Shown one piece after another: positions 38,066 to 40,273 of a stretch of 48,471 nt of DNA. Positions within the stretch are counted from its first letter, which is position 1, and each line of letters starts with the position of its first letter. Source of the DNA: Ilumatobacteraceae bacterium (GTDB lineage Bacteria; Actinomycetota; Acidimicrobiia; Acidimicrobiales; Ilumatobacteraceae); contig JBKJJS010000223.1 in the NCBI GenBank assembly GCA_046597895.1, forward strand, positions 1 to 48,471, in the 5' to 3' direction. The position numbers and the translations under genes are program-made. Under the pieces are notes generated by a model that saw only the letters and a program-made list of their open reading frames with translations, was not told where the DNA came from and ran no database searches.

Positions 38066-38491
38066 TCAGACGAGCAGGAACTCAATTCCGAGGCGACGGT
38101 ATGTACCCATCGCCCGCTCGTCGCGCGTGAGTAGGGGGAGGCCGGTGATCTGTGCCGACGCGGCGACGAGAGCGTCGTACACGGCACCTCCAGCGACGCC
38201 GGCTGACATCATGTCGTCGAAGGTGCGTTCGCACTGAGCGGAGTCGAGCCAAACCCGCACCGGGAAGTTGTGGTCGAGGATCCGGCGCGCCGTTGCCGCC
38301 GCGAGGCGGGAACGGCCCGGTAGCCGGGTGAGCACTGAGAAGGTCTCGAACAGTGCGTGGCCGGCGATGGCCGCCCGATGCGTCCGCACCGAGTTGACGC
38401 AGGCCTCATGGGCGACATGGTCCTCCATGATGGCGGCCAGGGCCACACTGGTATCGGTGACGGCCGTGGCATCACCGGTGGAGAGCGTCAC
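38066..38491 (-). CDS. vapC: PIN-domain ribonuclease toxin VapC
   Basis: 141 aa with acidic PIN residues in VTDTSVALA, GGAVYDALVAASA and LLTRDERA. Lies immediately downstream of, and overlaps, an AbrB-type antitoxin gene. Confidence 0.8.
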   Translation of the reverse strand: MTLSTGDATAVTDTSVALAAIMEDHVAHEACVNSVRTHRAAIAGHALFETFSVLTRLPGRSRLAAATARRILDHNFPVRVWLDSAQCERTFDDMMSAGVAGGAVYDALVAASAQITGLPLLTRDERAMGTYRRLGIEFLLV

Positions 38492-38717
38492 GAAGGCCTC
38501 GAACGTCGTCGTCGGTCAGTGAGCCGTCCCCGAGAGCCGAGACGACCAGGAGACCGTCGACTTCGAGCACCGCGGGCTCGGGCACCGGCACACGATCGAC
38601 CCGAATGCTCAACCCGTCGAAGGAGATGTCGACCTCACATCCCGGCGTCAGGCCGAGCTCGTCTCGCACGCCCTTCGGAATGACGATGCGCCCGCCACCA
38701 TCTATGGTAGTGATCAT
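38472..38717 (-). CDS. vapB: AbrB/SpoVT-fold antitoxin VapB
   Basis: 81 aa. GGRIVIPKGVRDELGLTPGCEV is a typical SpoVT-AbrB swapped-hairpin motif. 20-nt overlap with vapC. Confidence 0.8.
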   Translation of the reverse strand: MITTIDGGGRIVIPKGVRDELGLTPGCEVDISFDGLSIRVDRVPVPEPAVLEVDGLLVVSALGDGSLTDDDVRGLRDALHR

Positions 38718-38746: not shown

Positions 38747-38788
38747 AGGCAGCCGTGATCGAGTCTCAGACGGCCGTGATCGAGTCTC
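38747..38788. repeat. 21-bp tandem duplication (19/21 identical) spanning the MOSC stop codon and the vapB upstream region
   Basis: Plus strand: aggcagccgtgatcgagtctc / agacggccgtgatcgagtctc. On the coding (minus) strand this reads G D S I T A V TGA D S I T A A C TGA. Confidence 0.95.
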
Positions 38789-39617
38789 CGACGTGGATGG
38801 GGCCATCGACCACCACGCGTGCGTACGCACCGAGGTTCTGGTCGAGGTCGCGCACGATGTGACGCAAAATGGCCCTGTCGCCAGGAATGGCCTCGCTGAC
38901 CTCACGCGTCGTCATCACACATCGTGGGCATCCGCCCAGGATCTCGATAGTCGCGGCACCGACCTGGAACTGGGTTCCAGCGGGCCACTGTAGCTCCGGA
39001 TGACCGGGCTCGTCACCGGTGTCGATGACGAAGCTCGGTCGGAAGCGGCGGACGTCGACGACGGAGCCTGGGACGGCATGGCCGAGCGAGCGCAGCGCCG
39101 AGGTCGTCATCACCATGAGCGGATGGACGTCGAGGTAGGTGCCGGGAGGTGATTCGAACTCGAAGATGACGGGTGGGAATTGCGTCAGATCCGGGAGCGG
39201 TTCGTCGCCCTCGCGCCCGAACACCGCCCGTAGCTCGGCAATCATGTCGTCTGAGTCGGCCGGGCCGCGTCGATAGTGCTCCAGGTCGTCGGCAGGGCGC
39301 AGCGCCTCGAGCCGTACCGGTTGTCCGAGCGCGGCACTCACCTTGTCGTTCACCGTCGGATCTGACGTCAGCACGGTCGAACCGTCCGGCAGCGTGATCT
39401 CGGCCTCGCCCCCGGGCACACCCGTGTACCGCGCCGCACACTTCATCAATCCGCCCAGCTTTTTGGCACCGCGAATCCCGCCGCGCTCGAGGTCGCGCGT
39501 TGCCCAGCCGCGGTCGCCTTCAACGCCCCACTCGCCGAGGCGGGTTGACGGCACGGTCTCGCCGATCATCGACTTCACGGGATAGCGCCAGATTTCGCTC
39601 ACGTGCATGGTCATCAC
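38766..39617 (-). CDS. MOSC-domain protein (MOSC_N beta-barrel plus MOSC)
   Basis: IWRYPVKSMIGE N-terminal motif and the invariant Cys block ILGGCPRCVMTT. The GTG/ATG starts at 39617/39614/39608 overlap the stop of the upstream MerB-like gene (GTGA). Confidence 0.88.
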   Translation of the reverse strand: MMTMHVSEIWRYPVKSMIGETVPSTRLGEWGVEGDRGWATRDLERGGIRGAKKLGGLMKCAARYTGVPGGEAEITLPDGSTVLTSDPTVNDKVSAALGQPVRLEALRPADDLEHYRRGPADSDDMIAELRAVFGREGDEPLPDLTQFPPVIFEFESPPGTYLDVHPLMVMTTSALRSLGHAVPGSVVDVRRFRPSFVIDTGDEPGHPELQWPAGTQFQVGAATIEILGGCPRCVMTTREVSEAIPGDRAILRHIVRDLDQNLGAYARVVVDGPIHVGDSITAV

Positions 39618-40273
39618 GGTAGACGCCAGAACTCGTTCGCCAAACCAAGTCCATCCAAGATGGCCTGGTTCTGTTCACGGGAGTGCGGTCGCCACTCCGG
39701 CGACACACGGTCCCCCCACCAGGCGTGGGCGAGATCGCTCAACGTCGTCACCGGGATGGTCGCTCCGGGTGGGCGACCATCCAACCAGCGCTCGATGTGC
39801 TCCTCCGACCGGAAGAGGTTCATGGTGCTTCAGGTGAACACGATGTCATCCCACCAAGAGACGGCCGGAACAAGGCAGTGAAACAGAAGGCCCATATCAC
39901 TCGGCTGCCCGTCGACCACCTCGAAGGCGATCGGGTCCTCACAGTCCGGACACGCCGATTCGATCCGACCATCGGCGTGGAGTGCAGCGCAGATGCCGAT
40001 GGCGTCCCACGCACAGTTCCCGTACCACCAGCGCCCACGGGCGTTCACCCGAAACGCGGTAGGGGTCGCCGAGAATGGGTTCGCCATGCGGATCGCGGCG
40101 TTGCCGGGTTCCAGCACGAGGGCATGCATGTCGTGGAGTCGCCGCCAACTCGCTTCGACCTCGGCCTCCGGCGCGCTCATCGCTCGGCTGACGTCGGAGA
40201 CCGTCGGACTACGTCCGAGTTCGACGAACAAACGATAGGTCGCATTGCGGATCACGCGGTCTGCCTCGTCCAT
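39614..40273 (-). CDS. MerB-like (alkylmercury lyase family) protein with in-frame TGA at 39830-39832; candidate selenocysteine codon (U148), 219 aa if recoded
   Basis: ORFs 40273..39830 and 39823..39614 share one frame and are separated only by TGA-AGC-ACC. GNCAWDAIG matches the MerB C96-x-x-D99 motif. DDIVFT-TGA-STMNLFRSEEHIERW lines up with MerB RQSF-C159-CHVHFFASVPTAEDW. A hairpin follows (next feature). Confidence 0.65.
39800..39817 (-). promoter_or_regulatory. SECIS-like hairpin CUCUUCC-GGUC-GGAGGAG starting 12 nt downstream of the in-frame UGA
   Basis: 7-bp stem (4 G-C, 2 A-U, 1 G-U) with a GGUC tetraloop. A possible 3-bp lower helix AUG/CAU flanks it. The spacing and loop resemble the E. 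coli fdhF SECIS as I remember it. Confidence 0.5.

Follow-up and report, generated by a model that had tools for sequence, protein, structure and literature searches.

In the organomercurial lyase MerB, two thiolates bind the metal of the organometallic substrate and an aspartate protonates the leaving carbon. A relative in which the second mercury-ligating cysteine gives way to selenocysteine (Sec) has already been predicted. The MerB-like selenoprotein SaoL (NF040728) carries a C-U motif, and its Sec aligns with MerB C159 (Haft and Gwadz, bioRxiv 10.1101/2022.07.06.499078). SaoL sits in a nine-gene SAO locus in strictly anaerobic Firmicutes, Deltaproteobacteria and spirochaetes (10.1101/2022.07.06.499078), and it is the only MerB-type entry in a 2026 review of prokaryotic selenoproteins (PMC13188914). 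An "Organic mercuric lyase MerB2" had been listed among selenoprotein families, in 17 organisms (Peng et al., 2016; PMC5029168, Table S3). Here we describe a MerB-like gene on the minus strand of contig JBKJJS010000223.1 from an Ilumatobacteraceae bacterium (GCA_046597895.1), whose 48,471 nucleotides were all analysed and are called the window below. We read positions 40273..39614 as one gene for a 219-residue MerB-family protein in which the UGA at codon 148 is decoded as Sec, and give this reading a probability of roughly 0.88. An earlier note on this DNA had proposed the same, and its interpretation is supported by the conserved UGA, the homologues with Cys in its place, the conserved downstream part and a GGUC hairpin that accompanies only the UGA forms.

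The novelty is limited, because Sec on the MerB Cys159 column is already known from SaoL. The remark in the earlier note that no characterised Sec-containing member of the MerB family was known to its author is overstated, since SaoL was published in 2022 and "MerB2" was listed in 2016. A literature search for a MerB-like selenoprotein of Thermoleophilia or Acidimicrobiia found only SaoL and generic list entries; MerB does not occur in the main text of the GOS paper, to which a 2022 review refers for its "MerB-like" entry. Some of the 17 "MerB2" organisms may belong to the clade of the window gene. The actinobacterial clade itself, widespread and largely from soil, is split into two open reading frames (ORFs) in public databases, and it appears to be unrecognised as a selenoprotein, because its 147-aa fragments carry the name "organomercurial lyase".

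A single frame interrupted by one UGA

The minus-strand frame from 40273 to 39614 consists of 219 sense codons, and its sole interruption is the TGA at codon 148. The two ORFs that had been noticed here, 40273..39830 (147 aa) and 39823..39614 (69 aa), do share this frame, with only TGA, AGC and ACC between them, and the joined product has the expected 219 residues and contains GNCAWDAIG. Other TGA-split ORF pairs were sought across the 48-kb window and none was convincing. The features of the gene are as follows.

39614..40273, minus strand: putative recoded MerB-like coding sequence, 219 residues (147 aa, Sec148 and 71 aa), with a Pfam match that crosses the TGA
39832..39830, minus strand: in-frame UGA, codon 148, read as Sec, on the MerB Cys159 column
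39616..39614, minus strand: terminal TGA of the 219-codon frame
40004..40015, minus strand: codons of Cys87-Ala-Trp-Asp90 (Cys87 40015..40013; Asp90 40006..40004), counterpart of MerB Cys96-x-x-Asp99
39941..39952, minus strand: codons of Cys108-Pro-Asp-Cys111 (CxxC), placed by invariance and by the MerB alignment
39877-39879, minus strand: codon of His132, invariant in 23 aligned family members

Comparison with MerB and SaoL

The joined product with Cys set at codon 148 scores 96.3 bits on the Pfam MerB model (PF03243; cutoff 27 bits, E=1.7e-27), and the match, from residue 67 to 186, extends over both sides of the TGA. A family profile built from 23 members was run against the PDB sequences and matched MerB2 5c17 (E=2.4e-13) and the plasmid MerB structures 1s6l and 3f2g. 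In this alignment YGNC87AWD90 stands opposite YAWC96ALD99 and FT-[148]-STMNLF opposite SF-C159-C160-HVHFF, so that Cys87 and Asp90 align with MerB Cys96 and Asp99, as the earlier note had it. Its placement of the TGA on Cys159 also stands: the profile gives it against 1s6l, 3f2g and 5c17, and the single-sequence alignment agrees. The TGA therefore occupies the position of the second mercury-ligating cysteine of MerB, and an active site made up of Cys87, Asp90 and a predicted Sec148 is supported. A model of P0001, the closest Cys-form homologue, was made with AlphaFold (AF2; mean pLDDT 72, active-site loop of low confidence). When it was searched with Foldseek, the top 11 PDB matches were all MerB or MerB2 (probability 1.0, TM 0.43-0.52, E 3e-9 to 2e-6).

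The protein thus shares with MerB (plasmid R831b; PDB 1S6L, 3F0P) and MerB2 (Bacillus megaterium, 5C17) the fold and the triad C96/D99/C159, here C87/D90/U148, and its C108 corresponds to the structural Cys117. Among the 23 aligned sequences, all close members, C87, W89 and D90 are invariant columns, as are C108, D110, C111 and H132. In contrast to MerB and MerB2, it would carry Sec in place of Cys159, it has no Cys160, and it holds an extra invariant CxxC and His132; Cys111 and His132 have no MerB counterpart. Judging from these columns, C108-x-x-C111 and H132 may, speculatively, form an additional metal-binding, redox or thiol-relay site. The segment with C108-C111 and H132 is absent from the distant member P0319. 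The window gene is moreover chromosomal, and merR, merT, merP and merA are not nearby. The NCBIfam MerB equivalog cutoffs are missed (NF033555, 31.7 vs 200 bits; NF009710, 33.5 vs 193 bits), and by these cutoffs the predicted protein, a MerB family member by its Pfam score, is not a canonical organomercurial lyase MerB.

The likeness to SaoL lies in the MerB family domain (PF03243), in one UGA-encoded Sec on the Cys159 column, and in the counterparts of C96 and D99. The differences are several. The window protein reaches 47.1 bits against the NF040728 cutoff of 140, with a match over residues 27-123 only; its motif is T-U-S, whereas SaoL has the C-U dipeptide; and the nine-gene SAO locus, with its ABC transporter, efflux pump and thioredoxin-like genes, does not surround it. 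The hosts of the window clade are Actinomycetota and Chloroflexota, many of them metagenome-assembled genomes (MAGs) from soil studies. Identity with SaoL was thus considered and rejected on the score, the missing CU and the missing SAO neighbourhood.

Recurrence of the UGA and translation beyond it

Homologues were scanned with one genome per species, which gave 70 loci, mostly from Solirubrobacterales and Gaiellales, with one from Acidimicrobiia, two from Chloroflexota/Anaerolineaceae and one from a Streptosporangiaceae MAG. An in-frame stop at the identical column is TGA in all 74 genes that have one there, namely 67 of the 70 species-representative loci, the window gene and six distinct, more distant metagenomic members. 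The true terminators of the first 68 of these genes (the 67 loci and the window) are TGA in 37, TAG in 21 and TAA in 10. The residues flanking the Sec codon are Thr/Ser on the one side and Ser/Thr/Asn/Gly on the other in all members seen, and the window has F-T-U-S-T-M.

The part downstream of the TGA is under the same purifying selection as the part upstream. In 65 genomes, position entropies are 0.48/0.39/0.99 for the 66 codons after the TGA, with a median ratio of nonsynonymous to synonymous substitution (dN/dS) of 0.26, and 0.51/0.45/0.97 for the 30 codons before it, with a median dN/dS of 0.21; codon variation is mainly at the third position on both sides. These values bear on one alternative, a gene truncated by a nonsense mutation whose downstream part is an untranslated remnant. 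The public annotation as a 147-aa "organomercurial lyase" would agree with such decay, and the remaining three of the 70 loci are truly broken by frameshift or deletion (L067, L069, L070). However, 74 genes spread over several classes and phyla have the stop in the identical column, the frame after it runs unbroken to a conserved C-terminus (...FWRLP*), and a 147-aa product would miss a third of the MerB fold. The earlier note had named a decayed downstream part in close relatives as a sign of simple truncation; what was found is an intact frame with dN/dS of 0.26 over the 65 genomes and mainly third-position variation. Because the downstream codons are conserved to this degree, a decayed remnant is excluded for practical purposes, and we regard it as hardly credible.

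The three broken loci differ in kind. L067 has a frameshift after CPDCG, and L069 diverges after the NCAWDA motif. In L070 an in-frame deletion fuses ..NCAWDALGI to MNLFRSEEH, and the Sec codon and about 58 residues are gone.

The same two halves recur throughout the databases. A protein search returned 5968 relatives. Of the 120 best, 94 have a length of exactly 147 aa, and 114 cover at most 67% of the query and thus stop at the Sec column or short of it; the NCBI-sourced name on the 147-aa fragments is "organomercurial lyase". The 69-aa C-terminal ORF, searched against 1.84 billion cluster representatives, matched 279 clusters (50% identity), and about nine-tenths of the best 150 of these are orphan ORFs of about 70 aa that begin at the Met after the stop. 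In eight loci of such distant fragments (six distinct sequences), a TGA stands nine nt before that ATG in all, and the upstream ORF, complete and scanned in four of the eight, is 147-152 aa long with a MerB Pfam match in each.

This pattern could also be produced by a split gene, in which translation stops at the UGA and reinitiates at the AUG 6 nt downstream, and the 147-aa and 69-aa chains together form a MerB-like fold without an equivalent of Cys159. The Met three codons after the stop (M151) is invariant, gene callers everywhere start the ORF of about 70 aa at it, and purifying selection downstream fits a separately translated peptide equally well. But M151 is equally invariant in the uninterrupted Cys forms and is therefore a structural residue, not specifically a start, and it is not preceded by a Shine-Dalgarno motif (...TTCACCTGAAGCACCATG). 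Reinitiation needs no bias among stop codons, yet the stop is TGA in 74 of 74 genes and never TAA or TAG. It also stands exactly on the catalytic Cys column, where it alternates with Cys among homologues, and a hairpin of the fdhF type with a GGUC loop follows at SECIS (selenocysteine insertion sequence) distance. We therefore consider two separate chains very improbable indeed.

The alternation with Cys is direct. Four full-length relatives that are 62-65% identical (P0001, P0003, P0004 and P0007, from loci L071-L074) have TGC or TGT at the column, and Cys is also found there in seven more distant full-length relatives (P0307, P0319, P0388, P0301, P0365, P0386 and P0376). One distant full-length relative has Ala at the column, and its first catalytic Cys is lost as well. 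The alignment of MerB homologues proposed in the earlier note thus shows Cys at this column in the four close and in seven distant full-length relatives, and TGA in the interrupted genes.

A separate observation concerns P0292, a full-length database protein of 231 aa with Trp at the Sec column (..DIVAT-W-GTILLFRSEE..). The Trp may be a real variant or a gene-calling artefact, in which TGA was translated under a code where UGA means Trp.

A putative SECIS after the UGA

A bacterial SECIS is a hairpin placed shortly 3' of the UGA, with G and U in its apical loop. The hairpin CUCUUCC-GGUC-GGAGGAG that had been described at 39817..39800 lies at these coordinates and begins 12 nt past the TGA. Its 7-bp stem and tetraloop are present in the minimum-free-energy fold.

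39817..39800, minus strand: upper stem-loop of the putative SECIS (CUCUUCC 39817..39811, GGUC 39810..39807, GGAGGAG 39806..39800)
39793..39825, minus strand: extended putative SECIS with a weaker lower stem (CCAUG...CAUCG region) and an internal loop

Comparison with the E. coli fdhF element, the paradigm of a bacterial SECIS and also cited in the earlier note, was checked on the real gene and holds. In fdhF the UGA is codon 140. With the U of UGA as nt 1, GGUC occupies nt 22-25 in fdhF and nt 23-26 in the window gene. Both are hairpins within the coding sequence right after the UGA, with an identical GGUC apical tetraloop placed 1 nt apart. They differ in that the upper 7-bp stem is perfect here, without the bulged U, and in the stem sequence. 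In addition, more distant relatives of the window gene vary the loop (GUUC, GGUU or 5-6 nt) while the hairpin register is retained and the stem base is extended.

The hairpin is conserved among the TGA-containing orthologues, as the earlier note would have it. Six or seven of the seven stem pairs are kept in 73 of 74 TGA forms, and its synonymous sites are frozen. In 63 distinct sequences of the TGA form, pairing in the upper stem reaches 99.3%, and where this stem changes, a standard pair is retained in 31 cells and broken in 3; the lower stem is 84% paired among homologues and less regular in the window copy. Codon entropy is zero only at Leu+5 (CTC 62/62), Arg+7 (CGG 65/65) and Ser+8 (TCG 64/64), the codons that encode the 5' arm and loop of the hairpin, while it is 0.7-2.0 in the other 30 of the 33 conserved columns with 4- or 6-fold degenerate codons. 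In the four Cys forms the same codons are free (CTG/CTT, TTT, CGC/CGA, TCC/TCT), and 3-5 of the 7 stem pairs are left; L071 keeps the peptide NLFRSEEH yet loses the hairpin. At least six stem pairs are thus found in 73/74 TGA forms vs 0/4 Cys forms (Fisher p = 3.5e-6, uncorrected for phylogeny). The comparative evidence, taken over the UGA, the downstream codons and the hairpin, is far beyond chance, and the support for the hairpin is its conservation and its association with UGA, not significant covariation.

In one distant low-GC member, L076:702-1367 (plus strand; JGI metagenome 3300022690, contig Ga0247388_10056382, GC 34%), TGA interrupts the frame twice, on the MerB Cys96 column (..YWGA-TGA-IWDA..) and again on the Cys159 column (..DIGYT-TGA-STMLLFRSE..). 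After the TGA at Cys159 comes the family hairpin, altered by a compensatory change (UUUUCC-GUUC-GGAGAA), whereas the TGA at Cys96 has a hairpin of another kind some 20 nt beyond it. If both UGAs were decoded as Sec, this would be a MerB-type site with two selenocysteines, a diselenol. L076 is a single sequence: relatives were found neither in an exact-peptide scan of metagenome contigs nor in the protein search.

The host lineage, and evidence against the proposed selenocysteine insertion

Several results weigh against the reading of the gene as one for a Sec-containing lyase. Neither the 48-kb window nor the flanking sequence that was fetched contains selA, selB, selD or tRNA-Sec. The search used Pfam annotation of 30 window genes, none of which is SelA, SelB or SelD, and ARAGORN, which reported no tRNA for the window and, for related loci, tRNA-Asn and tRNA-Glu alone. 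A mer operon (merR, merT, merP, merA) or an SAO context that would point to the substrate is also absent from the window. The stability of the window hairpin is not exceptional against shuffled sequences (z = -0.93). Covariation was not significant on two alignments (score 0.126 vs 0.116 for shuffled ones, reached by 33/500), and the only double compensatory change, C18-G31 to U-A, is in L076. Rfam gave neither a SECIS nor any other family at the gathering threshold over the whole window or at E<=10 around the hairpin. Finally, the hairpin encodes the conserved peptide LFRSEE, and its conservation could be partly at the protein level. The frozen synonymous sites and the loss of the hairpin in Cys forms that keep the peptide argue against such a protein-level cause.

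For the Sec machinery, support stands at the level of the lineage. Ilumatobacter coccineus and I. nonamiensis have SelD, SelA and SelB, with 15 and 10 selenoproteins, and Candidatus Microthrix parvicella has 7 selenoproteins (PMC5029168, Tables S1, S2). SelD, SelA and SelB are likewise present in Solirubrobacter soli, Solirubrobacter sp. URHD0082, Patulibacter americanus and Conexibacter woesei Iso977N (PMC5029168). The Sec trait is patchy, and Conexibacter woesei DSM 14684 is without it (PMC5029168).

The same facts bear on the possibility that the UGA is read as another amino acid, either as Cys by a tRNA-Sec-like tRNA and a SelB paralogue, or as near-cognate Trp or Cys by hairpin-stimulated readthrough. 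The inserted amino acid is indistinguishable from sequence evidence, the distant P0292 has Trp at the column (perhaps from UGA=Trp gene calling), and the lineage-level nature of the machinery evidence leaves room for such recoding. Yet these lineages are documented Sec users (PMC5029168, Tables S1, S2), and the family shows the classical signature of Sec: UGA alternates with Cys at a catalytic position that binds metal, and a hairpin of the SelB type goes with it. A recoding signal this elaborate would bring no obvious gain over TGC, the codon used by close relatives, if it inserted only Cys, and UGA is still a normal terminator that ends 37/68 of these genes. Recoding to a residue other than Sec is accordingly judged very unlikely.

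The window is a core-chromosome segment of 66.5% GC from Acidimicrobiales (Ilumatobacteraceae-like). Its TypA shares 84-89% identity with proteins of MAGs that bear the name Ilumatobacteraceae or Acidimicrobiaceae at NCBI, and its gene order is actinobacterial: aroC-aroB-efp ... pyrB-pyrC-carB-pyrD-pyrF ... coaBC-metK ... rsmB ... typA ... glcD-glcF ... tal-tkt. The closest relatives of the MerB-like gene are from Thermoleophilia (65-71% identity). An Acidimicrobiales window whose gene has its nearest relatives in Thermoleophilia hints, on these sequence identities, that the gene may have spread laterally between actinobacterial classes.

Gene neighbourhood

The neighbours of the gene are MOSC, an LPG-synthase-like membrane protein (LPG_synthase_TM), LOG, tal, tkt and VapBC.

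38766..39617, minus strand: MOSC-domain gene (MOSC_N and MOSC), downstream of the MerB-like gene

The MOSC gene starts with a GTG that reaches 4 nt into the end of the 219-codon frame, over its terminal TGA (GTGA), an arrangement which suggests that the MOSC gene may be translationally coupled to the full-length MerB-like frame. This pairing is specific to the window and is not conserved in the 70 related loci, where ORF clustering gave no conserved partner and only one syntenic gene, ribonuclease-Z-like, in 19 loci. Classical mercury resistance is not implied, as no mer operon is nearby. Directly downstream of the MOSC gene lies a VapBC-type pair (38066-38717, minus strand), in which a PIN-domain protein of 141 aa is preceded by an overlapping MazE/AbrB-type antitoxin of 81 aa.

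Proposed mechanism

With UGA 148 read as Sec, the hairpin 12 nt past it would serve as a bacterial SECIS. SelB carrying Sec-tRNA(Sec) would bind the apical GGUC loop and bring Sec to the ribosome while it pauses at the UGA, and translation would then go on for 71 residues, completing the MerB fold. By analogy with MerB, the product is most likely a lyase of carbon-metal or carbon-metalloid bonds that would act by MerB-type protonolysis, in which a selenolate would take the place of one thiolate as metal ligand and Asp90 would be the proton donor.

More tentatively, the genes described here might make up a second lineage of MerB-family selenoenzymes, distinct from SaoL and found in Thermoleophilia, Acidimicrobiia and some Chloroflexota. 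Its members might be stand-alone, mer-independent lyases of organometals or organometalloids, perhaps high-affinity lyases of methylmercury or of other bonds between carbon and a soft metal, with the diselenol site of L076 as the extreme form. We hold this wider picture to be possible, with the doubts somewhat the stronger. Such a clade would be invisible to annotation and to merB-based surveys, because its genes are called as two ORFs.

Implications for the MerB family

If codon 148 is Sec, thousands of database entries, including the 147-aa "organomercurial lyase" records, are truncated halves of one protein, and a family model with a Sec-aware annotation rule would repair the split entries. 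Homologues of merB are used as markers of methylmercury degradation in metagenomes, and surveys of this kind could overlook or misjudge an unrecognised Sec clade in abundant actinobacteria of soil. The window-type enzyme would also offer a tractable stand-alone system, with natural Cys variants, for comparing Sec and Cys in the cleavage of carbon-metal bonds, and its fdhF-like GGUC loop suggests by analogy that the native SECIS might be read in E. coli. Two MerB branches whose hosts differ greatly, the anaerobes that carry SaoL and the Actinomycetota and Chloroflexota described here, would have gained or kept the exchange of a thiol for a selenol at a metal ligand, which suggests that a selenol may give a general catalytic advantage in protonolytic carbon-metal lyases.

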